DNA of 64,000 bases from an uncultured Lachnospiraceae bacterium. Its GTDB lineage: Bacteria; Bacillota; Clostridia; Christensenellales; UBA1242. This document shows, one piece after another, positions 44,133-61,022 of this stretch; the first letter of the stretch is position 1; each line of letters opens with the position of its first letter. The DNA is taken from assembly GCA_964393975.1 (NCBI GenBank), contig CAYMVO010000005.1, positions 192-64,191 of the forward strand, in the 5' to 3' direction. Position numbers and translations under genes: made by a program. The notes beneath the pieces were generated by a model, which was not told the DNA's origin, ran no database searches, and saw only the letters and a program-made list of their open reading frames with translations.

Positions 44133-45584
44133 TTAGAGTATAGCGCTAAATAACCTACACACTGATTTAGCCATTTTTACAAATGGTGACAAATTTTTAA
44201 ACCACGCCTTTCCCACCACAATACTATGCAAGGCATCATTTTCAAAAATATGAACGAGTTGCATAGATGTCGGTTTATCATAAATCACCACATTCACCTC
44301 AAAATTCAAACTAAATGAACGTACATCCGTATTGCACGTACCCATTGAGGCGACCTCACCATCCACAACGACGACTTTTGAATGAATAAACCCCTCACGC
44401 ATATACACAACCGCTCCATAATCTACTAATTCCTTTAGATAAGATAGCGAGCAGTAATACACAACCTTTTTATCGGGGAGTTTGGACAACATAATACTAA
44501 CTTTTACACCACTACTTATCGCTATTCTAAGTGCGGTCATAAAACTCTCATCAGGTACAAAATATGGACTTTGTATCAAAATGTATTTCTTTGCTTTTGT
44601 AATCATATTGATTAGATTCATTTCAATTTGTGCGCCATCATCATCAGGTCCGCTAGTCACCACTTGCATAGCGACACCAGACTCATTTTTACCTTTTTCA
44701 AAAAATCTATTGATATATGTCTCATCAAAATCTTTCTTTTTGTAACTAAATCTCCAATCTTTTAAAAAGGTCTTTTGTAAATCAATAACACTATCACCCT
44801 CGACTCTAAGGTGCAAATCTGTCCAAGGTGACAATCTCTTCACACCACCCATATGATCGTCACGGATATTTATACCGCCTACATAGCCAATTTTATTGTC
44901 AATAACTACTATCTTTCTATGGTTTCGGTAATTGATACGAATATTAAAAAGTCTCATTCCAAATAGTGGTGGGAAAAACTCAGCATATCTCCCGCCACCA
45001 TGCACAAGTTTTCTAAATTCCCGTCTATCACTTTTTAGCGAACCCACCGCATCTACAAGCAAATTGACCTCCACACCTTGATTTGCTTTTTCAATAAGCT
45101 TTTTTAGTACAATCATACCTATATTGTCGGTCGCAAAAATATAATAGCATATATTGATACTCTTTTTTGCACTGTCAATATCTTTTAATAAAGAATCAAT
45201 TTTATCTTTACCGCTCGTAAAAAACATCAACTTATTATTATGCGTTAATATACTATCACAAGTATTTAGATTGTGCATAATGAGTTGTTTGTATTTTGCT
45301 TCGACACCCGATACGCTTACTTCTTCACTTTGTATTTGCGCTTTTTGCTGGTTTACTAGGTCTTTGAGCTCTTTGCTACGTACCGCCTTTCGTCTAAGCA
45401 TTCGCCTTGTCTTAAAACTAAGACTGCCACCTATGAGCGCATATAATATTAGCCCTATTATCGGCATTAGTAGCATAATAATAGACCAACTAATCACGGT
45501 ACTAGGTTTTTTGCGCTCTATAAACACCATTCCTAATACAAATAGTGTATTTACAAATATTACAACAAAATACGCCCAATGCAT
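44133..45584 (-). CDS. cls: Cardiolipin synthase
   Basis: Track start 45683 overlaps a terminator hairpin. ATG 45584 (MHWAYF) follows AGGGGA. Two N-terminal TM segments and two HKD motifs (NHRKIVVIDNKIGYVGGIN; IHSKVVVVDGEVASMGTCN). Confidence 0.85.
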   Translation of the reverse strand: MHWAYFVVIFVNTLFVLGMVFIERKKPSTVISWSIIMLLMPIIGLILYALIGGSLSFKTRRMLRRKAVRSKELKDLVNQQKAQIQSEEVSVSGVEAKYKQLIMHNLNTCDSILTHNNKLMFFTSGKDKIDSLLKDIDSAKKSINICYYIFATDNIGMIVLKKLIEKANQGVEVNLLVDAVGSLKSDRREFRKLVHGGGRYAEFFPPLFGMRLFNIRINYRNHRKIVVIDNKIGYVGGINIRDDHMGGVKRLSPWTDLHLRVEGDSVIDLQKTFLKDWRFSYKKKDFDETYINRFFEKGKNESGVAMQVVTSGPDDDGAQIEMNLINMITKAKKYILIQSPYFVPDESFMTALRIAISSGVKVSIMLSKLPDKKVVYYCSLSYLKELVDYGAVVYMREGFIHSKVVVVDGEVASMGTCNTDVRSFSLNFEVNVVIYDKPTSMQLVHIFENDALHSIVVGKAWFKNLSPFVKMAKSVCRLFSAIL

Positions 45585-45683
45585 AGCACTTCCCCTTTTA
45601 AAAAATATTGTATAGATAAATCTTACTTTAACTACATAATACAAAGTATAACCCAAACAAAGCAAAAAGTCCACTAAAAACAA

Positions 45684-45710
45684 AAAATTCCTATTAAATT
45701 AAGGAATTTT
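45684..45710 (-). terminator. Terminator after the giant gene
   Basis: Minus strand reads AAAATTCCT-N9-AGGAATTTT followed by TTG. Confidence 0.5.
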
Positions 45711-45766
45711 TTGTAAAACAAGCAAATAAATATTTGCATTTGATATTGTTAATTTTCAGTCACTAC

Positions 45767-48700
45767 TTAATTTTTTATAACTATACACGTGTAAGTCACA
45801 CTAGAACCGTTTAATTTATCGGTAATAGTTATCTTGCACTCCATATTACTTGAAATGCCCGTAATCTTTAACACCCCAGTATTTTTATCGTACGTAAACT
45901 CACCTTTAGCAATATCGCATACCACATCAAAATCAGTAGGAGCAATATCGGCACCTCTTGCAAGTTTTATAATCTCATTAATACTCATACCACCTTCAGT
46001 GTTTAATGAATAATTAAGCACATTAGGTGTCTCATCTATCAACAAAACTTTTCTTGCATTTACTGGAACATTCACCACAAAACTAGTAGTATCACCGCTC
46101 TTTTCCGCAGTTATGATAAATTCAATCGTAACAGTAGTCCCCGCAAGACTTTTGTTTGCCTTAAATGTATAAGTACCATCTTCATTTTTAACCATATCGT
46201 TATCTTTATCCAACCCACCATTTACTTTTATAGTTGTGCTAAAATTATTAGTAGTACTTGGTTTATTTAACCAAGAATTGTAAATGCTATATGAAATATT
46301 TACAGTTCCGTTTTCCTCAATAGCCTCCGCAGTGCAAGTATCATTAGCAGGTTTACCACCTATCATAATATCTTTCACCTCATAGGTAGCAAGGCAATTC
46401 ACATCCATATACCCTACATAAGTTTTATTATCTTTAGACAAAGTAATCTTTAATATTTGTATTGAATTATTAAATATATCCTTTACAGTAAGCTTGCTAC
46501 CAGTAATCGTTGCAATACAACTAGTCGCATCAATCAATTTTCCGTCCTTGTCTACTAATTCAAACTTATAAACAGTCGCATCAATCAATTTTCCGTCCTT
46601 ATCTAAGAACGTAGCCAAAAATGAAGTTAGGTCTATAGATTGACTAGAATATAGAGCCAGCGCTTCACCTTTTCGCTCAAAGTCGTACACGATTTCACTC
46701 ACACTTACGACACAACTATTTGTATAAACATTTTTAGTACCTTTGTAAGAGTAATTAAATACTATCCTGTATTTATTACCTGCAGAACCATCTAAGAACC
46801 TTATATCACTGCCACTTATTGTGACATTTTCATCATCTTCACCGGTCTCAATATTCTCACAACTTATAGTCACACCGTCGATGCCATCAGTTTCGCTAAA
46901 TTCAGTTCCAAACTTTAAAGTACTCGTAATATCTATACCAGATTGTGTCACCTTGATCAATTCTTTTGCATCGATAGTTGAGTCTGGTTCAATATATCTC
47001 ATACTCTCGGTAACCGAAATATCATAAGACGCCTTAATCAATACAACAATATACCCCAAATAAACAGTATCATTGTACTCTACTTTCACTGTCACTTGGA
47101 TATAAGTATCCGCCAAAACATCATTCGCATAGATGGTTTTAGGTGCATTAGTATTTATTACAGCTTCCGCGCCTTCATATTGCAATGAATAATCGACAAG
47201 TGTTCCTTGCGATAAAATATCCAATTCATCGATCATAGCGACCTCATCTTTTACTAGAACGTATGATCCTATTTGACTAAGCGCAACATATCTAGATGCG
47301 TTTGACTCTATCTCAATAATCTCGCTTGATGGCGTAAAGACAAATTCTTGTGCTTTTATACCGTTGGTCTCAAGATTTGTTATGTATTCCAAAGTGTTAC
47401 CTACAACATCGGTCAATACATATCTTACCACATAGACTAGTCTACCCTCCTCATCAACATTATAAGTAATACTATTAATACTTGGCTTTATTGATAATTT
47501 CATTGTAGACGCGCTAGCAGTATTATCTTCTGTCTTGGTCTCTGATGCAATGTCAAGTTCGGTGCTACTATTCAAATCGACCTTTATATCATTAATTGTA
47601 AGCGTCATTCCACTATTGACAGCATCAAATACTTCTTTTGCCCCAATATCAAATGAGGTATTAGCAGTCAAATTGATATAATTACTATTCGTCGAAGTCT
47701 CTTCGACAGTAAATGCGGGTTTCTCAATAGGTAGTATGATAAATGTAATAGGTGTACTTTGCTCATTATATTTGATAGTGACCGTTATATCTGTAACATT
47801 TAACAAGCTCTTAGTCGTTAAAATACCATTCTCATATTCTACCCCATTCTTATTCTTATCATTAATAGTTACTTCGTAATCCTCTAATTTACTCGATGTA
47901 AATATATTATTGCTATATTGTAGCTCATATACCTCTATTAATTTAGAAATATTATATTCCGTATTACTATTTAACACCACACCATTAGGTAAGTAATATT
48001 TATACCAGCTATTTTCGATCGCGTCGTACTTTCCATCGACGCTATTAGTCGTGTATGTTTCACCCCAACCATCAGTATAAGTGGTAGTCGTTATGGTAAA
48101 CACGCCAACACTATTAGTTTTTGACTCTTTCGTAAAGTTTGTGTTTGTATAGCCTGTAGGTGTTACAACAATATTGATAGTCGCATCCAAAATCACATTG
48201 CCAAATAAAGTTGCCTTTAGAGTCGTGATTTTGTTTTTACCATAGATACTCAAAGGTGAAGTAATTTTATACTTTTCAAATGCTACCTTTTTTCCATTTG
48301 AAAGCTCATATATAATATTATCATTGCTATAATAGCCACCTATCCAGTTGGTCAACTTATCCTTTAAAGACATATCACTAATACCTGCGTCAAGTGTTAT
48401 AGTCGTTTGTGCTTTTGTATAGTTAAATACAAAATCTAAATATACAGTATACCATTCATTATTGTCTTTATCATAACACTCAAAACGATAATATAAATCA
48501 CTTTCTTTAAATGCGCTTACAGTCGTAGACTGTTTTGTTTTCAAATATTGATTTAAAACATCTCTAGCATCAGACTCATTGATACTACTTGCGGTTTTTA
48601 ATTTATTCAACGCATCGATATCATTATTATCATCCACAGTCACTGTAATAAATTTATCACTATTGACCTTTTTACTTAAATCAGCATTAATATATACATA

Positions 48701-51700
48701 CAACAAATTGTTTGTAATAGTAATCTCATTACTGGCTTCAACTTTTGTAATAAAATTAATTGTAATAACATACGAATATGCCTTTTTTACAAATGATATA
48801 GATTTACTATCTGATGAAGATACAATCTCTGCATTAGCGACAAATACAGATACATCGTTTAAATCAACACTTTCACCTAATTCACTCTTTATCGCATCAA
48901 ACACATCATTAATAGAGACTTGAGTAGAACCACTAAACAATTTATTTATCTTATTTATATCATAAGATTCTAACACATTGTCTTTTTCAATTATTTTCTT
49001 AGTCGTAGCAGGGTTTATGATAAAGTGAATGATGCAATTTTTATTATTTTCCAACTTACCACTACTAATAGGGGCGTATTCTAAGTAAAGATATGCCTCT
49101 GTTACGTTATCATTAATAGTCACATATTCATTTCCATTTTCTACAGAATACTCGCAATCATTACATACTATTGTATTATTATCTATCGTCCCCTTTATTA
49201 TTTCTTTCAAATCGATCTTTCTATTTGCGTTATCAAACTTATAAATACTAGTGTTACTTATCGCAGATACTTTTTGCGACAAACTCAAGGTCGATAATTC
49301 TTTTTCAGGAATAACAAATGTATACAATTTACTTTGCTCACCACTTTTAAATGTCACGCTAATAGTTTGTTCTTTCAAAACAAGATAGTATTTACCATCA
49401 GACAAACTCCCCGACTCTTCTCGTTCGATCGTATATACACCACCATTACCATTAATAGTCTCACTATCCACTTTGACCTCGACATCAAAGTCGGTAAATG
49501 CACTAAAGTCCAACTCAAACTCACGATCATTTATCTCTTTTAGACAATCACCTAATGTTTCGAAAGTCGGAAAAGTGCTAGGAAATTCTATTTCTACAAA
49601 CGCTACCAAAGGGCGATTACTACTACTATCAGTACCGGTACATTTTACCCAAACCTCTCCACCATTTTTGTTTGAGCATACAACATCACACGCACCAGTA
49701 CCATCCTCCTCTATCGTGACATCGCTTATACCGCTAACAATGCTGTAGCTATTTGCTCTTATTGATTTGCTACCAACCGTATAAGTCACCCCAAAATACA
49801 ACCTATTAAGAGTATATATACTATTTATTTTATAGCTAAGCTCATACTTATCCTTGACGATATAATACTCCCCATCTATTTCATAAATGTAGCCAACCTT
49901 ATCAAAAACGCCTTTCTCATCCTCCTGTGTGACATTTGTTGATTCCACACCTCCGCTAGGTTTGTATATCGTCAAACTTTTAGTATAAGTAAATGGTTCA
50001 CCTTTTGAGACAAATCCCGCTTTAGTGTAAATCTCCGTCATACTTTCGCTACTCGTTTTATTAACGGTAATAGAGAAAGCGTGCGTGAATATACGTTCAC
50101 CATACTTTAACTTAGCGACTAAACCGTAAGTCATATCTTTCAACGCACAATCTATTGTTAATTTATTATTTTTAAATTTAACATTTGTGCTATCAGAGTA
50201 AATTTTTTCAATTTTCAAATCATAAGAGCGACCTTGCATAGAAGACAGTGTAAAAGTAGGAGTAATATTCACATTAGAAGAATACTCATTATCAATATTA
50301 TCACTAATGCTAAAATCATTTCTTAGCATTACATGTATGGTAAGTGTAAATGTTTTTCCATTTTTCAAAGTGTATGTTTTTACGTAATCATAACCTTTAG
50401 TGTTGTTATCCACTGCGCCCTTATAACACAAAAACACACCACCTTTATAATAATCACTATTCTCAGTCTCTTTTGCACTATTATAAAATTTTTCATCTAA
50501 GAAATTTTCCAAATCTACACTATCACCCTCAGACACGCTAAGTTCCGCGCCGTTATTAGTCTCACTAATAACATTTACACCGGAAGGTATAGTATACGTC
50601 AAAGGAGTTATTGTAACCTTTACATTCTTAACACACTTTACGCCTAGTCCAGTAATATTTAAAACGATATCAAAAGACGTTGATATAGTTTCACTTCCTC
50701 TAAGATTCTCATCTACAGATATAGTCCATTTATTATTAGTCTTTTCAATATTTAGATAACCATTAGATAATATGTCAACAGTATATGATGTTTCAGTAAC
50801 ATTTGTAAAACTTAAATAATACGCATCGTTCTTGTTATTAAGAATAGAGATTTGCGAACCACTCATTAGCTCAATCGTGCTAACATCTTCATTACCTTTC
50901 CACAAAGAAACACTATATGTTGTAGTCTCAGTTGCTTGAGTAACCGCTACGAGATCAAATACGACAAGGTTCATTGTGTTATTTAGTGTATAGGTTATGC
51001 TTACATGTACTCTAAATCCTTCAACGGCATTAAATATACTTAGTTTACCACTTGACGTCAAACTCAAATATTCAATTTTAACATTTTTAGAATCAGTTTT
51101 GGATATACTAACAGTTTTATTATTTTCAGAATCAGTTTTAGATATACTAACAGTGCCTATTTCACTAGATAAATTATCATATAATACACAATCAATTTTG
51201 TATGAATCCTCTTTCAAACCGTCTGGTTTCTTGATCGCATTAGAAATCAAATCGAAAGTACCATTCCCGCCCGTATCTAATACGAGATCAAATCTAGACG
51301 CGACTGCACTATAAACACCGCTAGGTTCTACAAGGATACGACCAATAGCGTAATACTTACCACCCACACAAAGTTGTATTTGAGATTCAACGGTTTGTAG
51401 TACATTAGCTCTAGTAATTTTATTATTTTCACCTAAAGTAACCCTTTTGTCCAAACATTTAAACGATATTGTGCTATTATCATCGAACCCTTCAATAGTA
51501 CCAAAATCACTCAATACGAGAGTATCATTCACTTTTTTTGTAACCAATGTTTTGTTATGCACAAATAATGCTTTTTCACCTACAATTCTAAAAGCAAGTG
51601 ATAGTTTATCAATATCATCACCTTTTGATTTAATCTTAATTACACAATCAACAATAACAATGTCACCGACTGCACTATTGCTAAAATCTATAACGCAGTT

Positions 51701-54700
51701 TTGATTAATGGTAGGTTTTTGAGCGTTGTTTTTACCTTGACTATCTACCGCACTAATCACACTAAAGTCATAAATCAAGCCTTCAGTCTCAAATAATGGA
51801 TTATTACGAATAGTTGATATATAATCTTTCAAAGCAAGTTTGTCACCTACATAAGCAGACTCTATACCATTGATATTATCGCTCGCTGAAAAATTGAACT
51901 GAATACTTTTCCTTACAATCACGGTAGTAAAACCAAAATACTCTTTGCCTAACTCATCGGTTAGTTTTACAAGCAGATAGACCTCGGTGTCTGCAAACAC
52001 ATCTTTGTTAATCTTCAAGCAACCATTCTCAATAGTTGCAATACCACTATTATCACCGAACACACTCACAAAGGTGGTAGTACCATCTATCTTTACTTTT
52101 GTAGTCTCACCGTTTTCAGTCTTTTCTATGTAGAACTCACCATTTATGGTATCCAAATCTAAATCTTTGCCCGCACTTGTTTTACGCAAGATTTCATTTG
52201 CTGGCGAATAGTGATAGACATTATCATTAGTCTCTTTTAACATTAATAGTAGAACGACCTTACCACTACCGTAAGTAATAGTCATTGAATAAATATTCTC
52301 GTAAGTACCTACTTGGTTTATTGTAACATATAAACCGCTTACGCCATCAACAGGATATCCATATTTTGTTGTTTGAATATATTGACTGATGTCAAAATTG
52401 TACTTATCACTACCGATAGTCAATATTTTATCTTCTCGATTGAGTGGGGAATCTATCGTTTCATTATTTACCACAGCACTTCTCAAGACACCACTACTAG
52501 AGGTAGTATCCTCAGTGGTCGTCGTCTCAATCTTTTCTAATAAAATATAATCGCTACTACTCGCCTTACTCTCTATACTATAATCGGGCATAACCGTAAC
52601 ACTCGTTATACCCGTATAAATAGTTTTATCAACAGTATATGTAACCAATATTCTAACGGTCGTTGTCTCAGATATACTAATACCAGCTTTTACTTTTAAA
52701 GTATTACTCACCACCTCTACTTTGTCTGTATTGTCTAGCAAACTAAACGCACTCGTCCCGCCAACAATCTTTGTACCATCACTACCAGAAAAACTATCTC
52801 CAAGATAATTCAAATCTAATGATTGACTAGCATACATTTTGTTAAGGTTTGTATTCACCTCAAAGGAATAGTTTTTCTTTATCTTGTAGTATACAGTACA
52901 AACTGTAACATTGCCAAGTTTTATATAAACCTGACTAACCATATCTTCACTAGCCATTACATTACTAAAGTCAACAATATATTTATCATTTTCAGAAGTA
53001 ATAGTAACATCCTCGTTACTATCCTCAATAGTGTATCCTTTGCTTAAAATCTTACCAAGATCAACATCGCCCTCGGCGTTTGTTAGCGTGCTTGATATAT
53101 TAGGATCTATAAAGTCTATACTGAGATAATTGGTCAATTCAAAAGTTGTCACGTCATCCTCAAACTCTGCAGGCTTTACCTCACTAGTATCACTACTAAT
53201 ATAGTTAACATTAGGTAAGATCGCTATAAAGTAAGCACATACCTCACTACCATTATTTTTTACACTTACCTTCTTTTTAGTGATTTTACTTACTGCTTTT
53301 GGAGTAAATACCCCATTTGTAACCTTTTCGTCCTCTACTTCAATAGTAAATACCGTAGCCTTTGAAAGAGATATTGTTTGATATCCACCGTCCTTGTACT
53401 CTTGAAGAATAATGTACATATCATTATTAGTATCAAAGACATTATAATCTTCAAGACTATAAACGCTATCTTGTGCAACATTTTCACTGATTGCTTTATT
53501 GGTCACGCAAATATAGTTTGGTAGTATCGCCACATAATAATTTTCATACTTAATGTAATCAGTAAAAGTAATCTTGACCTTTATTATCAAATCAACTCTT
53601 GTAGCAACATCACTCTCTAGAGTAAGAGTAAACCCATCAGTAAGCTCCTCTATTTTAAGCAAACTACTTGTGTCACCATTTGTATCTTTGCAAGATAAAC
53701 TCGTTATCTCTCCACCACCAAATTGTGTTTGGTTCAAACTATAAGCTTTAGTACCACCTGTTTTGAGGAGAGTAACTTTACTATTCACAGACTGATTTAA
53801 AATCAAAGGGTTATCCTTGCTATTTACCTCACTATTTGCATTATAGAATACTGCAGGGGTAGGGTAAAGCATAAACGTATACTCAGCATTAGCAATTGCA
53901 GTGCCATTTACACAAGCCGTAACAACAAATTTAGTACCATCGATATCCGCCAAATTAGTTAATTGAAAACCAACTTCACCTGTCGTCGTAGTGGTGGTAG
54001 TGACCACTTTGGTATAATCTACTTTATTTTCTTTATTTTCTCCATTAAATGCTTCATAAGTGTAAGATAAGTTATCAACTTTGCTACCATCTATTTTAAC
54101 AACGGTCAAGTAATCTTCAATCTTATAAATAGGATTAGTAGCGCCATCATAGGTTAAATTGGTCATATCTTCTAATTTATTAATAACGTATCCACTCGTA
54201 AAGTATATATTGTATGTAATGTCTTTAAATTGTTCTTTTGAATTATAATAAGAGGTATAAAATCCGATAGATATCTTAGCACGTTCTATAGCTCCACTAT
54301 ACTTCAAAACGTTATCTTCAATATAACAAGTAACATCACTCTTTTGGATAATATACATATACAAACCGCTTGTATAATCTCTACTACCTTTAGTAGCACT
54401 CACATTCGTACCGAATATATCAAGCCTTTGTTCGTTCCCACCTCCACTTGCATCCAAGCACTCAAAAGTCTTATCTGTTTCTATAATATTAGAAGGATTT
54501 GAGTATTGTAAATTAATCTTGACATTATCAATATTATTAACGGTGCTATTATCCATTATGTATACAGAGTAAATATCAAACAATCCGCCCTCGCTAGTAA
54601 TCGCTATCCAAATAAGTGTAGGTATTTTGATATCACTTGTAGCACTGATAGATATATTAGTAGCATTTTTGGATACATCAAGTGAAAGTTTTGTGCTATC

Positions 54701-57700
54701 AGACCAAGAAGTATCGTCATAGTCTAATTCTAGCACTCTAAATGAAAGTTTGTTATTGATATTAGTTTTTTCGCTTTCAACAATATTTACCGCTTCAATG
54801 TATTCACTCAAATCAACACTCTCACCCGATTCCATTTCTAAGTATCCCAAAGTATCAAATTTGTCGCTAGTCAAGGTCGCAATATTTAAGCTATTAAACG
54901 AATTTATCATAGCGTCTTTATCTAGCCCCAACCCGACTAATTTATTTTCCTCAATCGGATAAGTCAAAGTCAATTTTTGTCCCGCGCTCAAACTAAAGTA
55001 CGCACAAAGTGGTTCGACACCCTCCAAGCCTTCTGGAGTAGCCTGTATCTTAAGCTTCACTGTATCAGCTACTTGCGTAAACTTGATATATCCACCCTCT
55101 AAATAAGCAAATGGCACTTCGGTATATTCTGACACCCCAGCACCTAAGTCATCTATCCTATATGCTTTGATAGATAGTTCTAGATCAGATTGCCCATTAT
55201 ACGTCTTTGCACTATATACTTCATTTAACGCTACTAAGCTATTACAATTAACAGAATAAGGATTGCTTTCATTATTAAATCCATCATTAGTCTTGTAATA
55301 ATCACCCTCACCGACATCTTGTAATACTTTGACCTCTAATATTATTCCTGTAGCAATATTATTAATAAACACTTCAATACTTGCAGTATCATCCCCTGAA
55401 TAATTTAGACCTGTTAAATATGCACTCTTACTACCTTTTTCATATAATACGACGTAATATTTTGATTGGTTAGGTTCGCCAAAACTAATCGCATCTTTTA
55501 AAGTGCTTGAATTTGCAATTGTTAAACAATCATACAACGTTTTGGTCTCATTTTTATGTATAATAAACCTACCATCTTCATCCTTATTCTCATTGATTAT
55601 ACTCAACTCATAATATGGTATCACAGTTATCACTCTATCAAACACATATTTAGTAGAATAAGCAGTGTATGTCATTTTTACATTTATAACCAACTCGGTA
55701 AATACCTTGCTAGATGAAATTGTTAAAGATTTTTCAGTCGCATCATAGGTAGCGATTTGGACCTCTTGCGTTATCTCAAAAGTAATCGCTGGTCTTGCAA
55801 CAAAATTGCCGGCAAAGTCTTTTGCAAACATCAATCCCTCATTTGTTTCGCTTTCTTTTAGTAGTTTAACAACCTTGTCTTCACTACCCAACTCAACCGT
55901 ATAACTTGACGAAGTATCAATGTCATATTCACCTGCTAAATAAACACGTCTAGTAACGCCACCAACGTCTTCTTCAATGTATTTAGTCAAAATATCAGGC
56001 ACCAATAGTACTTCAAAACTCTTTGAGAACACTTCAGCCCCGTTTTCATCTTTCTCATAGACACGTATAGTCGCTAAAGTAGGTGAAGTCACAGCCTTAC
56101 CGCTAAAGTTATTATAGGTCATAATGCCTGTAGAGCTACCTATAGTCACATAATTTGATTGGTCTACGCGATAATATATATTACTGATATTATTAGTCGA
56201 TGAACCGTTAACTGCAGTGACATTTATATACGTACCCTTAAATGTAACCTTGTTATCAGATTTGTGTACAAAGGTGATGTAGTCTACACCATTCCACCTA
56301 CTAACCACTGCTTGATTTTGAGTAGAAGATGACGCACTATCGGAATTGATGTATTCATTATAAGCTTTAGATAAATCTAGTTCTACTTTTAGATTATTCT
56401 TCAAGGCAAACCTTACATATAAAACATCATCAAACTCACTTGTGAGAACAATAGTCACAATTTCTGAAGATGCCACATTTTTAACAAACTTAACATCTCC
56501 TCTTTTTGTGAGTCCATTCTCGCCGTCTACATTTGCTATTATAGCGCTATTAGTAGTGGTTAAAAATGAAAGCTCTACTAGACCACTATTTTCTTTGCCA
56601 TTATAGTAGTAACCTACCATATCCAAAACATTCGCAGTCTGTCCGTAGTAAACCTCTTTGCTATAGGTCGCGCCATTTTGATAAAGCTCGCCATCCTTGA
56701 CATCAATGCCTTCATTGCTTAACGCACTTGTGGTTTTATAACTACCTGTCAAAGCCCTTAATATAATAGTAATCTCATCATATATTTGGTCATTTTCAGC
56801 GCTCACTGCGCGAATGGTGACGCCAGTATCTTTGGTCGCTTTTTTAAAGTCCAACATCTGTTTACCATTAATAGTCTTAATAGCAATATACTCAGCATCG
56901 CTACTCACAAGATTATAGTTTGTATTTTGTCCATCTATAGCGACTGAATAATCAAACTCACCTCCCTCGTTCTCTGAGCCATTTACATAATAAATTTCTT
57001 TCCAAACAACAGTAGAATTTGCAACACTTGCTCTATATACAAAAGTCTTTTTCGTCGTTTGATCTTCACTCTTCACATTTAATTTTACACTCTTAACACT
57101 TGTGTCTTTAATAGCATATTCTGCGCTACTACCGACACAATTATTTTCACCATAGTACACCTCAAAGGTGACATGTTTACCATAATCAGCCAAAGAACTC
57201 TTTGGTATAGAAAAATCTATACAATAATAATCATCCAAAGTCTTATACAAAGCACTATCTAGTTGAATTTGTGCTGATTTAGCAGTTTGTTTATCCAAAT
57301 ACTTTATACTAATCTCATCTATTACTCTAGCCAAAACATTGATATCAACATCTTCGCCATTATATACAGGTCTTATATAGAGTTTGTATTCGTTGTTTTC
57401 CAAAAGAGTGTAGTCTACTACATCCTCAATTGACTCATTTTTTTCTTCCACAATACGCACAGCCACTTCTTTTAAAATCGTTTGAACATCCAATTTTAAG
57501 TATGTATATTTGTATGTGTAAGTCCCTGATTGAGCATATTGTATTTCATTACCTTCGTAATCGGTTTGAACTAAAACAGCATAAATATTCACCTCCACAT
57601 CGCGAAGCATAGTAAGTATACCGCTTGCATAGGTTTGCCCGTCGTATTCTCCACCAGCAATTAAAACGCCGTAAATATTACGCTCCAATAAGTATGGGAC

Positions 57701-59398
57701 CTTTTGAGCGTCAGTTAATGATGTAAAATCAATCTTTGTACTTAAATCAGCAAGTCCACTATCAAACTCATCCTCACTTGTGCTACAAACAGCATAAAAT
57801 TTGATCAAATCATAAGTAGGAGTAGCACTATTTTTAGTAACATTTTTGATGTAATTATTTAGATTGATGGTTTTAGAGTTTTCCGGATCTATTGTAACAC
57901 TAAGCACACTCTTTGAGTTATCGTCTTTATTTATAGAAATCTCTACATTATCCGTTTTAGAAGTCCCTTCCGTATAGGTAATATATTCGGTCTCAACAAT
58001 ACCCACCTTAAAAGAGAAATCTTTTGATATGACTTTACCATCATTAGGATTTACAATGTTTAGAGTAATTTTAAATAAATCACTCATATTGTCTTTTATT
58101 GTTAATGTGTAATAATACTCCTTTTGATCGTCGCTTGCAGTCTCCCACTTATTATCCATTATCGGTCTTAGATATTCATTACCCAAATCATCGGTCAAAA
58201 CATCAGCTCCAATCTCTAAAACATCATTTTCATCATCACCTAAATTTGTAGTCAAATAGATATCCTTAATCTTGTCAAACATATCTTTATACGACATACC
58301 CGTTGCGGTGTTAGGGTTGACAGTAATATCAAGATTTATACCATTTTCTTTTGCTAGTTCCTCATCAGTCTTATTTGTCCTTAAATACAACTTAAATGTT
58401 TGTTTGTAAATAACACTGATTTGATCCACTTCGCTAGTAGTAGGATAGTTAATAGAACCAATGCTATCAATATCTATCTCGCAGACATTATAGATTTGCT
58501 CCTTAACCACTTTCATACGACTCAGCTTCTCGGTCTCAGTCTCTTGAGTAACAATCTTTTCTTGCTCCTTATACGTATCGAAAGCATACGCCACGACTTT
58601 AAACCTACCCGTCTTTAAGACCTTGATTTTAGTCTTTTCTTCATTTAACCATTTAGCAGTCTTGACGGAGTCATTATTCACATAGATAGGATTTTCCACA
58701 TCTATCCAAGTATTTCCCACCCCTGGTTGCTCAAACTCAAAATACAACTTGTATATGTATTGTTTGTTCGCTTTTGAAACAATAGGTGAACCTTCGCTTA
58801 CGGCACTAGGATTTACACTTTTGCTAGGTAAAAATGTTGGTGTATATAAATCAATTACTTGGTTTACATGTAAAGTCTCACTAGTATTACTAGCGTTAAT
58901 TGAGATATCCGTTACTGGTATATCAATAAACACTTGACAGGTGTCCACACCATATAAACCGCCATTCGCTATAGCAGTAATTGTCGTAGCACCTCCATAA
59001 GGCAACCCACTTGCAGTCTTTGGTATCAACACTTTGATAGTTTCCCCGATTTGAGCGGTCTTACGCTCCAAGCGAACTATAGAAGAATCCGCAACAGACA
59101 AATCTACATCTTTTACGGTTACATTATCAGGTTCCGCCGTTATTTTTATCTCAAAGTAGTCAATAATCTTTGGCTTGCCGTCCTCACCTAACACTATATC
59201 CCCGTTTTCATCATACTCGTAAATGTCAGGTTCGTATAGAGTCTTTTCAAAATGAATCGCTTTTGGCGTCACTACTATAGGATCAAAAGCACCTGTAAAA
59301 TACATTGTTCCAATTGTTATAGCTATCACGCCGACAAACGAACTTAAAATAATACTTATAGTCATTATAAGTGACTTTTTTAGACCGATATTTTTCAT
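45767..59398 (-). CDS. Giant (4543 aa) N-terminally anchored, beta-rich surface protein; domains not recognisable by eye (some Big_2/Ig-like looking segments)
   Basis: A single uninterrupted 13.6-kb ORF with RBS GAGGAG 5 nt before the ATG. The N-terminus MKNIGLKKSLIMTISIILSSFVGVIAITIGTMYFTGAF is a signal anchor. The sequence is T/N/S/V/Y/D-rich with no long exact internal repeats and no C-terminal LPxTG. Confidence 0.85.
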   Translation of the reverse strand: MKNIGLKKSLIMTISIILSSFVGVIAITIGTMYFTGAFDPIVVTPKAIHFEKTLYEPDIYEYDENGDIVLGEDGKPKIIDYFEIKITAEPDNVTVKDVDLSVADSSIVRLERKTAQIGETIKVLIPKTASGLPYGGATTITAIANGGLYGVDTCQVFIDIPVTDISINASNTSETLHVNQVIDLYTPTFLPSKSVNPSAVSEGSPIVSKANKQYIYKLYFEFEQPGVGNTWIDVENPIYVNNDSVKTAKWLNEEKTKIKVLKTGRFKVVAYAFDTYKEQEKIVTQETETEKLSRMKVVKEQIYNVCEIDIDSIGSINYPTTSEVDQISVIYKQTFKLYLRTNKTDEELAKENGINLDITVNPNTATGMSYKDMFDKIKDIYLTTNLGDDENDVLEIGADVLTDDLGNEYLRPIMDNKWETASDDQKEYYYTLTIKDNMSDLFKITLNIVNPNDGKVISKDFSFKVGIVETEYITYTEGTSKTDNVEISINKDDNSKSVLSVTIDPENSKTINLNNYIKNVTKNSATPTYDLIKFYAVCSTSEDEFDSGLADLSTKIDFTSLTDAQKVPYLLERNIYGVLIAGGEYDGQTYASGILTMLRDVEVNIYAVLVQTDYEGNEIQYAQSGTYTYKYTYLKLDVQTILKEVAVRIVEEKNESIEDVVDYTLLENNEYKLYIRPVYNGEDVDINVLARVIDEISIKYLDKQTAKSAQIQLDSALYKTLDDYYCIDFSIPKSSLADYGKHVTFEVYYGENNCVGSSAEYAIKDTSVKSVKLNVKSEDQTTKKTFVYRASVANSTVVWKEIYYVNGSENEGGEFDYSVAIDGQNTNYNLVSSDAEYIAIKTINGKQMLDFKKATKDTGVTIRAVSAENDQIYDEITIILRALTGSYKTTSALSNEGIDVKDGELYQNGATYSKEVYYGQTANVLDMVGYYYNGKENSGLVELSFLTTTNSAIIANVDGENGLTKRGDVKFVKNVASSEIVTIVLTSEFDDVLYVRFALKNNLKVELDLSKAYNEYINSDSASSSTQNQAVVSRWNGVDYITFVHKSDNKVTFKGTYINVTAVNGSSTNNISNIYYRVDQSNYVTIGSSTGIMTYNNFSGKAVTSPTLATIRVYEKDENGAEVFSKSFEVLLVPDILTKYIEEDVGGVTRRVYLAGEYDIDTSSSYTVELGSEDKVVKLLKESETNEGLMFAKDFAGNFVARPAITFEITQEVQIATYDATEKSLTISSSKVFTELVINVKMTYTAYSTKYVFDRVITVIPYYELSIINENKDEDGRFIIHKNETKTLYDCLTIANSSTLKDAISFGEPNQSKYYVVLYEKGSKSAYLTGLNYSGDDTASIEVFINNIATGIILEVKVLQDVGEGDYYKTNDGFNNESNPYSVNCNSLVALNEVYSAKTYNGQSDLELSIKAYRIDDLGAGVSEYTEVPFAYLEGGYIKFTQVADTVKLKIQATPEGLEGVEPLCAYFSLSAGQKLTLTYPIEENKLVGLGLDKDAMINSFNSLNIATLTSDKFDTLGYLEMESGESVDLSEYIEAVNIVESEKTNINNKLSFRVLELDYDDTSWSDSTKLSLDVSKNATNISISATSDIKIPTLIWIAITSEGGLFDIYSVYIMDNSTVNNIDNVKINLQYSNPSNIIETDKTFECLDASGGGNEQRLDIFGTNVSATKGSRDYTSGLYMYIIQKSDVTCYIEDNVLKYSGAIERAKISIGFYTSYYNSKEQFKDITYNIYFTSGYVINKLEDMTNLTYDGATNPIYKIEDYLTVVKIDGSKVDNLSYTYEAFNGENKENKVDYTKVVTTTTTTTGEVGFQLTNLADIDGTKFVVTACVNGTAIANAEYTFMLYPTPAVFYNANSEVNSKDNPLILNQSVNSKVTLLKTGGTKAYSLNQTQFGGGEITSLSCKDTNGDTSSLLKIEELTDGFTLTLESDVATRVDLIIKVKITFTDYIKYENYYVAILPNYICVTNKAISENVAQDSVYSLEDYNVFDTNNDMYIILQEYKDGGYQTISLSKATVFTIEVEDEKVTNGVFTPKAVSKITKKKVSVKNNGSEVCAYFIAILPNVNYISSDTSEVKPAEFEDDVTTFELTNYLSIDFIDPNISSTLTNAEGDVDLGKILSKGYTIEDSNEDVTITSENDKYIVDFSNVMASEDMVSQVYIKLGNVTVCTVYYKIKKNYSFEVNTNLNKMYASQSLDLNYLGDSFSGSDGTKIVGGTSAFSLLDNTDKVEVVSNTLKVKAGISISETTTVRILVTYTVDKTIYTGITSVTVMPDYSIESKASSSDYILLEKIETTTTEDTTSSSGVLRSAVVNNETIDSPLNREDKILTIGSDKYNFDISQYIQTTKYGYPVDGVSGLYVTINQVGTYENIYSMTITYGSGKVVLLLMLKETNDNVYHYSPANEILRKTSAGKDLDLDTINGEFYIEKTENGETTKVKIDGTTTFVSVFGDNSGIATIENGCLKINKDVFADTEVYLLVKLTDELGKEYFGFTTVIVRKSIQFNFSASDNINGIESAYVGDKLALKDYISTIRNNPLFETEGLIYDFSVISAVDSQGKNNAQKPTINQNCVIDFSNSAVGDIVIVDCVIKIKSKGDDIDKLSLAFRIVGEKALFVHNKTLVTKKVNDTLVLSDFGTIEGFDDNSTISFKCLDKRVTLGENNKITRANVLQTVESQIQLCVGGKYYAIGRILVEPSGVYSAVASRFDLVLDTGGNGTFDLISNAIKKPDGLKEDSYKIDCVLYDNLSSEIGTVSISKTDSENNKTVSISKTDSKNVKIEYLSLTSSGKLSIFNAVEGFRVHVSITYTLNNTMNLVVFDLVAVTQATETTTYSVSLWKGNEDVSTIELMSGSQISILNNKNDAYYLSFTNVTETSYTVDILSNGYLNIEKTNNKWTISVDENLRGSETISTSFDIVLNITGLGVKCVKNVKVTITPLTYTIPSGVNVISETNNGAELSVSEGDSVDLENFLDEKFYNSAKETENSDYYKGGVFLCYKGAVDNNTKGYDYVKTYTLKNGKTFTLTIHVMLRNDFSISDNIDNEYSSNVNITPTFTLSSMQGRSYDLKIEKIYSDSTNVKFKNNKLTIDCALKDMTYGLVAKLKYGERIFTHAFSITVNKTSSESMTEIYTKAGFVSKGEPFTYTKSLTIYKPSGGVESTNVTQEDEKGVFDKVGYIYEIDGEYYIVKDKYELSYKINSIYTLNRLYFGVTYTVGSKSIRANSYSIVSGISDVTIEEDGTGACDVVCSNKNGGEVWVKCTGTDSSSNRPLVAFVEIEFPSTFPTFETLGDCLKEINDREFELDFSAFTDFDVEVKVDSETINGNGGVYTIEREESGSLSDGKYYLVLKEQTISVTFKSGEQSKLYTFVIPEKELSTLSLSQKVSAISNTSIYKFDNANRKIDLKEIIKGTIDNNTIVCNDCEYSVENGNEYVTINDNVTEAYLYLEYAPISSGKLENNKNCIIHFIINPATTKKIIEKDNVLESYDINKINKLFSGSTQVSINDVFDAIKSELGESVDLNDVSVFVANAEIVSSSDSKSISFVKKAYSYVITINFITKVEASNEITITNNLLYVYINADLSKKVNSDKFITVTVDDNNDIDALNKLKTASSINESDARDVLNQYLKTKQSTTVSAFKESDLYYRFECYDKDNNEWYTVYLDFVFNYTKAQTTITLDAGISDMSLKDKLTNWIGGYYSNDNIIYELSNGKKVAFEKYKITSPLSIYGKNKITTLKATLFGNVILDATINIVVTPTGYTNTNFTKESKTNSVGVFTITTTTYTDGWGETYTTNSVDGKYDAIENSWYKYYLPNGVVLNSNTEYNISKLIEVYELQYSNNIFTSSKLEDYEVTINDKNKNGVEYENGILTTKSLLNVTDITVTIKYNEQSTPITFIILPIEKPAFTVEETSTNSNYINLTANTSFDIGAKEVFDAVNSGMTLTINDIKVDLNSSTELDIASETKTEDNTASASTMKLSIKPSINSITYNVDEEGRLVYVVRYVLTDVVGNTLEYITNLETNGIKAQEFVFTPSSEIIEIESNASRYVALSQIGSYVLVKDEVAMIDELDILSQGTLVDYSLQYEGAEAVINTNAPKTIYANDVLADTYIQVTVKVEYNDTVYLGYIVVLIKASYDISVTESMRYIEPDSTIDAKELIKVTQSGIDITSTLKFGTEFSETDGIDGVTISCENIETGEDDENVTISGSDIRFLDGSAGNKYRIVFNYSYKGTKNVYTNSCVVSVSEIVYDFERKGEALALYSSQSIDLTSFLATFLDKDGKLIDATVYKFELVDKDGKLIDATSCIATITGSKLTVKDIFNNSIQILKITLSKDNKTYVGYMDVNCLATYEVKDIMIGGKPANDTCTAEAIEENGTVNISYSIYNSWLNKPSTTNNFSTTIKVNGGLDKDNDMVKNEDGTYTFKANKSLAGTTVTIEFIITAEKSGDTTSFVVNVPVNARKVLLIDETPNVLNYSLNTEGGMSINEIIKLARGADIAPTDFDVVCDIAKGEFTYDKNTGVLKITGISSNMECKITITDKLNGSSVTYTCIVIKN
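46523..46600 (-). repeat. In-frame 51-bp-period duplication inside the giant gene
   Basis: The 27-nt exact repeat AGTCGCATCAATCAATTTTCCGTCCTT starts at 46523 and 46574. At protein level it reads DKDGKLIDAT...DKDGKLIDAT. Confidence 0.8.
51084..51154 (-). repeat. In-frame 39-bp tandem duplication inside the giant gene
   Basis: AGAATCAGTTTTGGATATACTAACAGT and AGAATCAGTTTTAGATATACTAACAGT lie 39 nt apart. At protein level it reads VSISKTDSENNKT VSISKTDSKNVKI. Confidence 0.8.
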
Positions 59399-59455
59399 AT
59401 TATCTCCTCATTGTACATTCAAATTATTTTCCGTAAATTTAGTAAATTTTATACT

Positions 59456-60361
59456 TTAACTAAGAAACTCCCAAATCAAAGAATTCCTACCCACAAGCGA
59501 CCTATCAAACTCAATATCCGACTCGAAAATCGTAAGGTACGCTCCCGCTTCAGCATCATTTTGCGCTATCTTGCCCATTTCATCCAAATAAATAAAAGGT
59601 TCGTACAAATGTGTTGTGTCTATACAGACATCCGCCATTTTTTTGTACGGAGTGATATATTTTTGTTCACCCTCTATGACACCTTGCCACATTTGTTTCG
59701 TCTTAGCTACAGAAGCACCGCGTTTATGGTAATCTCTTATAAGCCTTCTAAAAAATCTAAGCATTGCAGGTGTGATAACCTTGTACTCACTAAGAAAATA
59801 ACTATTAGTATATACATAAAGTCTAAACACCCTATCCCGCATTTCATCGCTTATTATATCAGGGTTAAACGCGTGTATCCCTTCAATAATAATAACGGTA
59901 TCACGAGTTATAGTGAGCTCGTACACATCCTTTCGCATCTCACCATTTGCAAAATCATACCGAGGCATCTTGCTTGTGTCGTGCTTAATTAGATTGTTTA
60001 CACATTCTTTAAACATATCTATATCAAGAGCATTAATGCTTTCATAATCAATCTTTCCATTAATCATTTTCCTATTTTTTGCACTGATATAAAAATCATC
60101 CATACTTATCACGACACAAGGAACACCTTTCGCTTTCAAAACATTTGTAAGAAGATTAGACGTAGTAGTCTTTCCACTAGCACTAGGTCCCGTTATCAAA
60201 ACAATTCTGCTATGCGTAAAATCATTTATCACGGAATTTGCTACGCTTAAAATCTTTCTACGATATTCACTCTCCGACTCCTTTACCACCGCTTTGGGGT
60301 TGACTTTTATCTTTTCAATTAATTTATCATAATCAATCTTTATCTGTTTAAAATCTCTCAT
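59456..60361 (-). CDS. Uridine kinase-family nucleoside kinase with an N-terminal extension
   Basis: 301 aa with P-loop ITGPSASGKTTT, MDDFY, IIIEGIHAF and RRLIRDYHKRG motifs. Confidence 0.6.
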   Translation of the reverse strand: MRDFKQIKIDYDKLIEKIKVNPKAVVKESESEYRRKILSVANSVINDFTHSRIVLITGPSASGKTTTSNLLTNVLKAKGVPCVVISMDDFYISAKNRKMINGKIDYESINALDIDMFKECVNNLIKHDTSKMPRYDFANGEMRKDVYELTITRDTVIIIEGIHAFNPDIISDEMRDRVFRLYVYTNSYFLSEYKVITPAMLRFFRRLIRDYHKRGASVAKTKQMWQGVIEGEQKYITPYKKMADVCIDTTHLYEPFIYLDEMGKIAQNDAEAGAYLTIFESDIEFDRSLVGRNSLIWEFLS

Positions 60362-60611: not shown

Positions 60612-61022
60612 TCAAGGTGTTTCTTTTGCGGGCGCAAAATATTTTTTTGTTGTTTTTAATATAGGTTTCTTTTTCTTTTTAAAAATTTGCACAAACTGAT
60701 ACACGCCTAAGCACACCAAAAACACGCCAAAAAGGACACTCAAACACTCAGTACTTATTAACTTTGTTAGATATGCTCCACCTATCGCGGTTATCAATCC
60801 CGACACCGCCAAAATCCAAACATCCTTATATTTTACTAACCCACTCTTCATCTGCATTATAAGAGCAATTATTGCGGTAGGTAAAAACGCTACTAAATTT
60901 ATACTCTGAGCATTTAATTGCTCAAAACCTAAAAACACGACAAGCATAGGTATCAAAAGCGTTCCGCCACCCATTCCCATTCCGCATATAACACCCGCCA
61001 AAATTCCGATAATTATCGACAT
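60612..61022 (-). CDS. Half-size TauE/SafE-family membrane protein (second half of a split pair)
   Basis: Track start is 61028 (GTG) with an ATG at 61022. 4 TM segments and GMGGGTLLIPML are present. Confidence 0.55.
   Translation of the reverse strand: MSIIIGILAGVICGMGMGGGTLLIPMLVVFLGFEQLNAQSINLVAFLPTAIIALIMQMKSGLVKYKDVWILAVSGLITAIGGAYLTKLISTECLSVLFGVFLVCLGVYQFVQIFKKKKKPILKTTKKYFAPAKETP

Follow-up and report, generated by a model that had tools for sequence, protein, structure and literature searches.

The 64-kb window analysed here (the whole stretch of DNA that was examined) comes from an uncultured spore-forming Clostridia bacterium, and about one fifth of it is occupied by a single gene of 13.6 kb, which is real and under selection. 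Its 504-kDa product is most probably, at a probability that we set at roughly 0.6, a lineage-restricted, membrane-anchored giant fibre or adhesin of the cell surface, built of diverged Ig-like modules. The general kind of protein, a giant Ig-like fibre, is well known, and the conceptual surprise is moderate. The way in which bacteria adhere to hosts, to one another and to phages depends largely on giant surface proteins, and those of uncultured gut-type Clostridia are almost unstudied.

The giant gene, its copies and its neighbours

The gene and its immediate surroundings comprise the following features:

45767..59398, minus strand: giant coding sequence, 4543 aa, 504 kDa, pI 4.6, intact in 5 independent assemblies
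59404..59409, minus strand: ribosome-binding site GAGGAG, 5 nt upstream of the ATG
59446..59474, minus strand: weak sigma-70-like consensus match TTGGGA-17-TAAAAT, over the 3' end of the PRK-like gene
59456..60361, minus strand: upstream PRK-family P-loop kinase-like gene, 301 aa (PF00485)
45675..45714, minus strand: terminator-like A/U-rich 13-bp hairpin with a U run, z = -2.95
44133..45584, minus strand: downstream cardiolipin synthase gene, 483 aa as called in assemblies, a conserved neighbour

As the preliminary description of this DNA had stated, the 4543 codons form one uninterrupted frame with a good ribosome-binding site and a terminator downstream. The hairpin is placed in the 182-nt gap between the giant gene and the cardiolipin synthase gene, and was missed by a consensus terminator scan because its stem has fewer than three G-C pairs. 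The sigma-70-like match is a candidate only for the gene's own promoter, and such consensus matches are not more frequent here than in shuffled sequence. The composition is dominated by the same eight residues that had been listed before (T 9.9%, S 9.0%, I 8.7%, V 8.5%, N 7.8%, K 7.7%, D 7.2% and Y 6.2%), and the chain is acidic and T/S/N-rich along its whole length.

The absence of both annotated homologues and domain hits could be taken to mean that the ORF arose by faulty assembly, belongs to a pseudogene in decay or does not code for protein at all. We give this explanation practically no weight, and consider it already refuted as far as sequence data allow. At 33% G+C one stop is expected per about 12 codons, so an open frame of this length cannot have arisen by chance (odds of roughly e^-400 from base composition), and no ORF longer than 114 aa was found in the other frames across the same region. 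Full-length copies are intact in 5 independently assembled metagenomes, at 4540-4553 aa and with every indel in frame, which excludes the misassembly considered earlier; partial copies are carried on at least 4 Logan contigs. Within the species, pN/pS is 0.14 over aa 1-1880, which clearly points to purifying selection on the base of the protein. It is from the intact assemblies, the in-frame indels, this low ratio and the syntenic full-length orthologues in two further lineages (25-40% protein identity) that we conclude that the gene is real. An identical protein product is recorded as P0005, and the source samples carry the accessions ERZ27279213-24 (ENA) and SRR118808xx (SRA).

The upstream gene had been called uridine-kinase-like. 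It does belong to the PRK/uridine-kinase family, and its position next to the giant gene is conserved across lineages, the PRK-like gene adjoining the giant gene also in L073, in the same order and with 47% identity; however, its product scores 93 bits against a cut-off of 220 bits for a true uridine kinase, and it classifies as a divergent P-loop nucleoside-kinase-like protein, not as a bona fide uridine kinase. The whole upstream block, i.e. a gene for a 1061-aa protein, two TauE genes and the PRK-like gene, is the same in P0008/L073, while in L071 a cardiolipin synthase gene (80% identity) lies directly 3' of the orthologue, together with a metallophosphoesterase gene (64%). The neighbours within the window are kinase-like, TauE, cardiolipin synthase, phosphoesterase, amidase and LeuRS genes, in a core-chromosome context with gyrA, gyrB, dnaB and aminoacyl-tRNA synthetase genes. 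Dedicated secretion or assembly genes, including ABC, MFP and TolC genes, were not found within about 10 kb on either side, in agreement with the preliminary description. Smaller Flg_new (Listeria-Bacteroides repeat) proteins are encoded nearby; the window also holds a GerA germination gene and, 2.5 kb downstream of the giant gene, a gene of the amidase_3 type.

Cryptic modules and predicted fold

No recognisable domain family had been seen in the protein, and profile scans of its whole length agree with this: Pfam-A at E<=1 returned only a spurious 11-bit Glyco_hydro_42C line (E=0.35), far under the cut-off, and NCBIfam gave 0 matches at E<=1. In particular, the Pfam scan matched none of Big_2, Big_3, Cadherin-like, DUF11 and similar families, no SLH, CWB2 or other wall-binding domain, and no collagen-like or known spore-coat domain. 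No lectin, CBM or other ligand-binding domain was recognisable by Pfam, NCBIfam or the module consensus described below, which itself matched nothing in Pfam below E=0.004 and nothing Ig-like. Neither the whole protein nor the module profile had a significant match in sequence searches of the PDB.

The protein had also been described as non-repetitive, with only two tiny in-frame duplications. Both of these were found:

51076..51154, minus strand: in-frame 39-nt duplication, two copies (TVSISKTDSENNK / TVSISKTDSKN), from Tandem Repeats Finder
46523..46603, minus strand: DKDGKLIDAT, two copies 17 aa apart (aa 4266 and 4283), seen in the sequence

Apart from the 39-nt duplication, Tandem Repeats Finder reported only trivial short ones. 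Near-identical repeats are indeed lacking, as self-BLASTP gave no off-diagonal match, and BLOSUM lag autocorrelation revealed no periodicity. The description does not hold, however, for strongly diverged repeats. Plain jackhmmer stalled at 4-6 modules and a tile-versus-tile comparison with hhsearch reached probabilities of up to 94%, while an orthology-consistent profile iteration led to the acceptance of 18 cryptic modules about 90 aa long, 13 of type A and 5 of type B, at thresholds at which 20 decoy pairs yielded no more than 0.25 hits apiece. The modules, all from the profile search, are:

56924..57169, minus strand: B module, aa 744-825, same position matched in the untrained P0008
55610..55843, minus strand: A module, aa 1186-1263
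54545..54838, minus strand: A module, aa 1521-1618
54227..54472, minus strand: B module, aa 1643-1724
53207..53467, minus strand: A module, aa 1978-2064
52580..52840, minus strand: A module, aa 2187-2273
51899..52180, minus strand: A module, aa 2407-2500
51320..51544, minus strand: A module, aa 2619-2693
50603..50872, minus strand: A module, aa 2843-2932
50051..50335, minus strand: A module, aa 3022-3116
49310..49477, minus strand: partial A module, aa 3308-3363
47735..47974, minus strand: A module, aa 3809-3888
47426..47695, minus strand: B module, aa 3902-3991
47024..47314, minus strand: A module, aa 4029-4125
46688..46981, minus strand: B module, aa 4140-4237
46382..46654, minus strand: A module, aa 4249-4339, all-beta in AlphaFold, pLDDT 60-70
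46049..46333, minus strand: B module, aa 4356-4450, best-modelled AlphaFold region, pLDDT 72-86
45770..46015, minus strand: A module, aa 4462-4543 (the end of the protein), AlphaFold pLDDT 57-83

The two types alternate at the C-terminal end. The module profiles match the orthologue P0008, on which they were not trained (best 41.7 bits), and have no other match in the rest of the window or in the loci of 44 relatives; they could seed new domain families. Together, the 18 modules account for about 1650 aa, and the remaining 60% or so of the chain could hold other folds.

The AlphaFold model of aa 3800-4543, which was made from a 3-sequence alignment and covers 16% of the protein, consists of all-beta modules and is confident only for about aa 4250-4543 (pLDDT 60-86), with low confidence over aa 3888-4170. 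A single-sequence prediction of aa 1-1200 (pLDDT 32) yielded no usable model and was left out of the fold search. With the C-terminal model, Foldseek retrieved protocadherins, titin, DSCAM and the S-layer arrays Sap, EA1 and SbsC (E 1e-10 to 1e-7), and the top viral fold matches were phage 'T1SS secreted agglutinin RTX'-like Ig arrays. About 300 aa at the C-terminus are predicted to form all-beta Ig-like modules, and we infer that the rest of the protein shares this fold. The giant Ig-like fibre or adhesin proposed in the preliminary description is in this respect supported in part, by a predicted string of beta-sandwiches that resembles Ig and cadherin arrays over about aa 4250-4543; for the N-terminal 3800 aa an Ig-like fold is a conjecture, and so is adhesion.

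Conservation gradient, anchoring and role

When the last 1200 aa were compared with 1.84 billion representative proteins, only three clusters came up, two of which are syntenic orthologues in sister lineages: that of L071 (36% identity by tblastn, 40% in a MAFFT alignment) and that of P0008/L073 (5196 aa, 25-34%). A 504-kDa protein whose gene order is conserved across at least three lineages can, as this one shows, escape every domain library. The closest relatives are MAGs of gut type, which bear the labels Clostridia, Christensenella or Catabacter. Further relatives were not found in a protein collection queried with aa 1-1000, aa 900-1200 and the C-terminal alignment (a weak negative, which also missed near-identical members), in a scan of GTDB species representatives (also weak, with only 6 exact 8-mer patterns) or in metagenome pattern scans, and the LeuRS neighbourhoods of 44 related MAGs displayed neither synteny nor a relative of the giant gene.

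Along the protein, conservation and polymorphism follow a gradient, on which four parts can be placed:

59309..59374, minus strand: N-terminal hydrophobic helix, aa 9-30, after the basic stretch MKNIGLKK, from hydropathy
53759..59308, minus strand: conserved membrane-proximal part, aa 31-1880, from identity, polymorphism and pN/pS
45905..53758, minus strand: fast-evolving distal part, aa 1881-4498, from identity, polymorphism and pN/pS
45770..45904, minus strand: conserved C-terminal end, aa 4499-4543, ...DKxxGxSxxYTCI, from orthologue alignment

The proximal part is about 50% identical to L071 over aa 500-1700 and 34% identical to P0008, and its polymorphism (1.4-3.6 per kb) equals that of the housekeeping flanks (1.9-3.0 per kb). 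Beyond aa 2700 identity to L071 falls mostly to 17-35%, and the middle is unalignable to P0008. Within the species, the distal part carries 3.8-21.6 polymorphisms per kb, 4-10 times the proximal level, and contains 113 of the 125 variable alignment columns as well as all the in-frame indels; its pN/pS of 0.79 would fit relaxed constraint equally well as diversifying selection. Conservation returns at the very end, where the last 43 aa are 58% identical to L071 and the residues of ...DKxxGxSxxYTCI are invariant across three lineages; a conserved end of this kind suggests that the tip has a specific function. Close to aa 1880 the conserved, putative stalk gives way sharply to the hypervariable outer part, and this boundary offers a concrete starting point for studies of how surfaces vary between strains, for instance in IgA coating, phage receptors and strain typing.

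The other end is conserved as well. As had been claimed, the only hydrophobic anchor is N-terminal: aa 11-29 form the sole segment above 1.6 on the Kyte-Doolittle scale (19-aa window, score 2.42). The helix and the motif that follows it, Y(F/L)TGAFDP, are kept in P0008 at 34% overall identity, and in this orthologue the helix is preceded by a 22-aa basic N-terminal tail, which is atypical for a cleaved signal peptide. Several features are consistent with a type II signal-anchor (the basic MKNIGLKK, a 22-aa helix, its conservation and the basic tail of P0008), and we regard the helix as more probably a signal-anchor than a signal peptide that is cleaved off. The earlier statement that sortase and SLH motifs are missing was confirmed: the protein has no C-terminal LPXTG (similar strings occur only at aa 125, 361 and 731), and its C-terminus, ...YTCIVIKN, is without a hydrophobic segment. 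RTX GGXGXD motifs number 0 in the protein.

We propose the following arrangement. The basic N-terminal stretch and the 22-residue helix would direct Sec-dependent export, the helix most likely staying as an uncleaved anchor in the cytoplasmic membrane, with its N-terminal side facing the cytoplasm and the bulk of the chain outside the cell. This bulk, some 4500 residues, would form an extended string of about 40 beta-sandwich (Ig-like) modules, each about 90-110 aa long; divergence would have left only 18 of them recognisable, as two types that alternate at the C-terminal end. The conserved proximal third could act as a stalk that crosses the cell wall. The distal 60% would be exposed. It changes fast through amino-acid substitutions, small in-frame indels and patchy substitution clusters that resemble recombination tracts, as expected where a surface is in contact with ligands, antibodies of the host or phages. 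The conserved C-terminal module would cap the protein. Both the uncleaved anchor and the extended fibre geometry are what we infer from these features. The adhesive or interaction role is presumed: the word 'adhesin' rests on analogy, as no cell-wall- or ligand-binding domain was identified.

Other arrangements have to be weighed against this one. The helix might be a cleaved Sec signal peptide and the mature protein be released as a secreted matrix, biofilm or S-layer-like coat. Gram-positive signal peptides may be long, a possible signal-peptidase site exists (ITIG|T, with G at -1 and T at -3), and S-layer arrays are among the Foldseek matches. Yet these matches reflect a generic similarity of tandem beta-sandwiches, with TM-scores of 0.1-0.2, the scans found no wall-binding domain that would hold a released protein, and the 22-aa hydrophobic core, its conservation across lineages along with the downstream motif, and the basic tail of one orthologue all speak for retention, so that we judge release to be unlikely. 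To the same degree we doubt that a protein of the proposed topology is a passive barrier, spacer or decoy, keeping phages, antibodies or cells at a distance or spacing the envelope, with no specific ligand. The lack of a recognisable binding domain, the acidic T/S/N-rich chain and a variability that spreads over 2600 aa and spares the tip would all be compatible with such a role, but the conserved end module hints at a specific tip function. A spore-associated structure, i.e. an exosporium fibre or appendage made in sporulation, is brought to mind by the GerA and amidase_3 genes. It appears very improbable in view of the N-terminal membrane anchor, the housekeeping-type neighbours (kinase-like, cardiolipin synthase, LeuRS) with no sporulation link, and the absence of collagen-like and spore-coat domains from the Pfam scan.

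Two further candidates were considered and rejected. In a polymorphic toxin or contact-dependent inhibition system the C-terminus would be variable, and here it is conserved, with a conserved cardiolipin synthase gene downstream and no immunity gene. For a target of a diversity-generating retroelement, no reverse transcriptase was found among the genes scanned and the variation is spread over 2600 aa. A phage tail-fibre, decoration or prophage protein is likewise not supported: the context is core chromosome, aa 1-3000 had no tblastn match in 50,697 phage records, and an IMG/VR pattern scan found no relative.

The membrane-anchored surface fibre remains the preferred reading. Tentatively, it can be extended further, although we consider the extended version possible rather than probable. 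The protein would then represent the first of a hitherto undescribed family of half-megadalton fibres that are membrane-anchored at the N-terminus and confined to one uncultured Christensenellales-like Clostridia clade. Two new alternating Ig-like module families, which escape all current domain libraries, would build these fibres. Their proximal third would be a conserved stalk and the distal 2600 aa an antigenically variable surface, in which antibodies of the host or phages select for change and recombination adds to it, with a conserved tip module as the cap. A syntenic and equally polymorphic 1071-aa orphan, lipoprotein-like protein would be its functional partner.

Comparison with known systems

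In the giant Ig-repeat adhesins of Gram-positive bacteria the signal peptide is cleaved, a C-terminal LPXTG provides the wall anchor, and intramolecular cross-links are often present. That of Mobiluncus mulieris has 7651 aa and 51 Ig-like domains (PMC10619420). The present protein shares with adhesins of this type that it is the largest of its neighbourhood, is probably extracellular and would form a long string of Ig-like beta-sandwiches; however, their repeats are recognisably similar whereas the modules here have diverged beyond detection by Pfam, and the anchor here is an N-terminal helix, without LPXTG.

SiiE, LapA and MpIBP are giant type 1-secreted BIg/RTX adhesins of Gram-negative bacteria. 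Like the fibre proposed here, they are giant rods of many non-identical Ig-like domains with a distal interaction region. In contrast to them, the present protein has 0 GGXGXD motifs, lacks a C-terminal secretion-signal context and neighbouring ABC, MFP or TolC genes, comes from a Clostridia bacterium and has an N-terminal membrane anchor. The S-layer proteins Sap and EA1 (Bacillus) and SbsC (Geobacillus) have beta-sandwich arrays such as are predicted here and are among the best PDB fold matches (E 3e-10 to 6e-7), but they measure 600-1100 aa, carry SLH or other wall-binding domains and form 2-D lattices, whereas the present protein is 4-7 times longer and has a membrane anchor and no SLH or CWB2.

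Finally, the giants found in metagenomes include Clostridia gut proteins of 10,000-30,000 aa with Listeria-Bacteroides repeats, and Omnitrophota proteins that have SecA-DEAD domains and cross the membrane many times (West-Roberts et al. 2023, bioRxiv 10.1101/2023.11.21.568195). The protein described here differs from these in its one helix and in having no Pfam domain and no Flg_new, and resembles them in being large, mostly unannotated, probably extracellular, encoded by an uncultured bacterium and in need of structure prediction tile by tile.

A single giant frame and its product

The gene runs as a single uninterrupted frame of 4543 codons from its ATG, preceded at a short distance by a ribosome binding site, as the preliminary description had it. 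The longest ORF in the other frames of the region does not exceed 114 aa and, judging from base composition, a frame of 4543 codons in DNA of 33% G+C could not have arisen by chance. The features of the window referred to below are the following.

45767-59398, - strand: giant gene, 4543 aa
5 nt 5′ of the giant-gene ATG: ribosome binding site, GAGGAG
59456-60361, - strand: PRK/uridine-kinase superfamily gene, directly upstream of the giant gene
60612-61028 and 61069-61437, - strand: two adjacent half-size genes of the TauE/SafE sulfite-exporter family
61651-64000, + strand, continuing past the window end: gene for a 1071-aa orphan protein
41664-42314, - strand: 216-aa ORF
35252-36753, - strand: AbiEii-family toxin gene (type IV toxin-antitoxin)
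26176-27957, + strand: alanyl-tRNA synthetase-like ORF
28119-28577: separate 152-aa ORF
2221-3753, - strand: GerA-family spore germination protein gene (E 2e-151)

Using the flanking proteins, kinase-like on the upstream side and phosphoesterase on the downstream side, as exact-match anchors, we retrieved the locus from many independent assemblies (ENA ERZ27279213-24; several Logan SRA runs). Full-length giant genes were joined from five assemblies (4540, 4543, 4544, 4549 and 4553 aa; 99.3-100% DNA identity), one being identical to the window copy. All length differences are in frame and none of the copies contains a stop. With strain pairs pooled, pN/pS comes to 0.14 over aa 1-1880 vs 0.79 over aa 1881-4543. 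As far as sequence data can show, this excludes a misassembly, a pseudogene or a non-coding frame, and the probability that the ORF is an artefact is negligible.

The product is an acidic protein (504 kDa, pI 4.6) in which T, S, I, V, N, K, D and Y abound. Its sole hydrophobic helix spans aa 9-30, the rest of the chain having none, and a motif scan of the whole protein revealed neither a C-terminal LPXTG nor an RTX motif. The Pfam-A scan of the whole protein (E<=1) gave no real match, just one spurious line at E=0.35; the NCBIfam scan gave zero matches and the PDB sequence search no significant one. The composition, the lone N-terminal anchor, the missing C-terminal sortase motif and the unrecognizable domain families, all proposed from the sequence beforehand, are thus borne out.

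Fold and cryptic modules

The protein had been described as non-repetitive. This holds for near-identical internal repeats, of which there are none; indeed, TRF found in the gene nothing but a two-copy 39-nt duplication and trivial short ones. It does not hold for the architecture. Phmmer, jackhmmer and an hhsearch tile comparison disclosed 4-6 related modules, and an iterative search, in which a match was kept only if the aligned orthologue matched at the same place and thresholds were set with 20 column-shuffled decoy pairs (<=0.25 matches per pair), converged on 18 modules of about 90 aa, 13 of type A (consensus VYSGQSLDL...YVGY..I.I.P.Y) and 5 of type B. In the last 740 aa they follow the order A-B-A-B-A-B-A with a period of ~215 aa. 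The profiles match the full-length orthologue P0008, on which they were not trained (best 41.7 bits), and gave no other match, either across the window or among the loci of 44 relatives. The consensus sequences matched no Pfam family, nor did module searches match PDB sequences. The protein is therefore repetitive in architecture, with repeats diverged almost beyond detection.

The AlphaFold model of aa 3800-4543, built on a three-sequence alignment, is all-beta with units of ~100 aa; its mean pLDDT is 51, reaching 60-86 in the last ~300 residues, and a single-sequence model of aa 1-1200 reached only 32. Foldseek with the former model retrieved tandem Ig/cadherin arrays (E 1e-10 to 1e-7), including protocadherins, titin, DSCAM, contactins and the S-layer arrays of Sap, EA1 and SbsC; phage Ig-like arrays were also matched. 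The TM-scores were low, as expected of flexible multi-domain strings.

The locus and its relatives

The window is core chromosome (gyrA, gyrB, dnaB, typA, ThrRS, LeuRS, AlaRS-like, rsmE, GerA). The LeuRS is at best 76-81% identical to those of gut MAGs (human, Hadza and rabbit) that carry the labels uncultured Clostridia, Christensenella or Catabacter, and the GerA-family gene indicates endospore formation. The source is therefore an unrepresented, Christensenellales-like and probably spore-forming Clostridia bacterium.

As previously noted, no secretion or assembly gene adjoins the giant gene and a terminator follows it: no such gene, nor a sortase gene, lies within ~10 kb, and the terminator-like A/U hairpin stands ahead of a bona fide cardiolipin synthase gene. 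The upstream gene, called uridine-kinase-like, does belong to that superfamily but is not a bona fide uridine kinase: its score against the equivalog is 93 bits, far short of the 220-bit cut-off, and its N-terminus is extended by ~50 aa. In L073, a distant lineage, its counterpart (47% identity) likewise adjoins the giant gene on the upstream side. The half-size TauE genes cover positions 2-117 and 121-237 of the profile, one half each; L073 has the same split, so this is a conserved arrangement of two genes and not a frameshift.

Elsewhere in the window, the gene upstream of the AbiEii toxin encodes 201 aa without Pfam match. Beside this locus lies a Flg_new (Listeria-Bacteroides repeat) protein of 285 aa in the window and two assemblies; in others, among the strains compared (L009-L017), it has 307 aa and a 299-aa DUF6273 gene is added after it. 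The AlaRS-like ORF has only 593 aa (tRNA-synt_2c and tRNA_SAD), where bacterial AlaRS usually has ~870, and the 152-aa ORF follows it. Neither Pfam nor NCBIfam gave a match for the 216-aa ORF that lies between LeuRS and an amidase_3 gene; this ORF is called in all strain assemblies.

When 1.84 billion cluster representatives were scanned in full by HMMER, with the final 1200 aa as query, three clusters only were matched, one being the window's own species. The second, P0002 (756 aa, 39% identity), is the tail of a ~4560-aa orthologue on the sister-lineage ENA scaffold L071, its gene call broken by N-gaps; this orthologue is 36% identical to aa 462-4542 by tblastn (40% in a MAFFT alignment) and is followed by cardiolipin synthase (80%) and phosphoesterase (64%). 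The third, P0003 (28%), includes the 5196-aa P0008 of the L073 lineage, upstream of which lie, as in the window, a ~1060-aa divergent orphan, two half-size TauE genes and the PRK-like gene. P0008 is 34% identical over aa 6-1867 and 25% over the last 500 aa, the middle being unalignable, and the neighbouring genes are 43-54% identical. Other searches, several of them weak (the word-index search missed known relatives), gave no further relatives. Such syntenic orthologues indicate an old, vertically inherited feature of a small clade, and the giant gene evolves faster than its neighbours.

Two related MAGs carry, a few kb downstream of LeuRS, open frames of >1850 and >2000 aa reaching the contig end (L040:5014-10584 and L041:16404-22424, +); neither tblastn nor the module profiles showed them to resemble the giant protein. 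Large surface proteins of other kinds seem common in the group.

The 1071-aa orphan, complete in another retrieved locus (L001:1802-5017, -), is transcribed divergently from the TauE/PRK/giant block. It has a lipoprotein-like N-terminus (MKKLKLKSKIFCCALCLSLGAG...), matches nothing in Pfam or NCBIfam and does not resemble the giant protein in sequence. Its position is kept in L073 (43% identity), and its polymorphism is 6.4-8.5 differences per kb, the flanks showing about 2-3. Perhaps this gene, linked to the giant one, encodes a second variable surface protein.

A putative fibre with a variable distal region

Identity to the L071 orthologue is ~50% over aa 500-1700, mostly 17-35% beyond aa 2700, and higher again, at 58%, over the final 43 aa. 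Within the species, polymorphism over aa 1-1880 (1.4-3.6 per kb) equals that of the housekeeping flanks (1.9-3.0), vs 3.8-21.6 per kb over aa 1881-4543, where 113 of the 125 variable alignment columns and all indels fall. The distal excess is mainly non-synonymous (pN 0.0092, pS 0.0116; proximally 0.0012 and 0.0085), and its patchy substitution clusters (e.g. aa 2316-2324, 2554-2568, 4396-4401) resemble recombination tracts. P0008 has kept the N-terminal helix and the subsequent Y(F/L)TGAFDP motif, and in it a 22-aa basic tail precedes the helix; a signal-anchor that stays in place is thus more plausible than a signal peptide that is cleaved off.

We consider it likely (probability about 0.6) that the protein is exported by Sec, anchored in the membrane through this helix, and forms a fibre of ~40 Ig-like modules. 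It would comprise a conserved stalk of ~1900 aa, an exposed, fast-evolving distal region of ~2600 aa and a conserved terminal module and, at an assumed ~4 nm per module, could extend over ~100-200 nm. Cleavage and release, as matrix or S-layer-like material, is improbable, with the helix pointing to retention. A passive barrier or spacer is just as doubtful. The variability of the distal region suggests that it interacts with ligands, host immunity or phages. A fibre associated with the spores of this presumed endospore former is very unlikely. Returning to the anchored fibre, we propose only tentatively that it founds an undescribed N-anchored family, with two new alternating Ig-like module types, a positively selected variable surface, a conserved tip and the 1071-aa partner.

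Adhesion is the usual role of giant Ig-repeat proteins, and by analogy ours is a putative adhesin. It may work like the 7651-aa Ig-repeat adhesin of Mobiluncus (PMC10619420), or like SiiE and LapA. Unlike these last two RTX/T1SS adhesins, however, it has no RTX motifs and its locus no T1SS genes; unlike sortase-anchored proteins it has no C-terminal LPXTG, unlike S-layer proteins no SLH or CWB2 domain, unlike the Big_2, Big_3 and cadherin families no profile match, and the traits of the Omnitrophota giant proteins are all missing. Though it fits no known family tested, the protein is probably of the giant Ig-repeat adhesin type.
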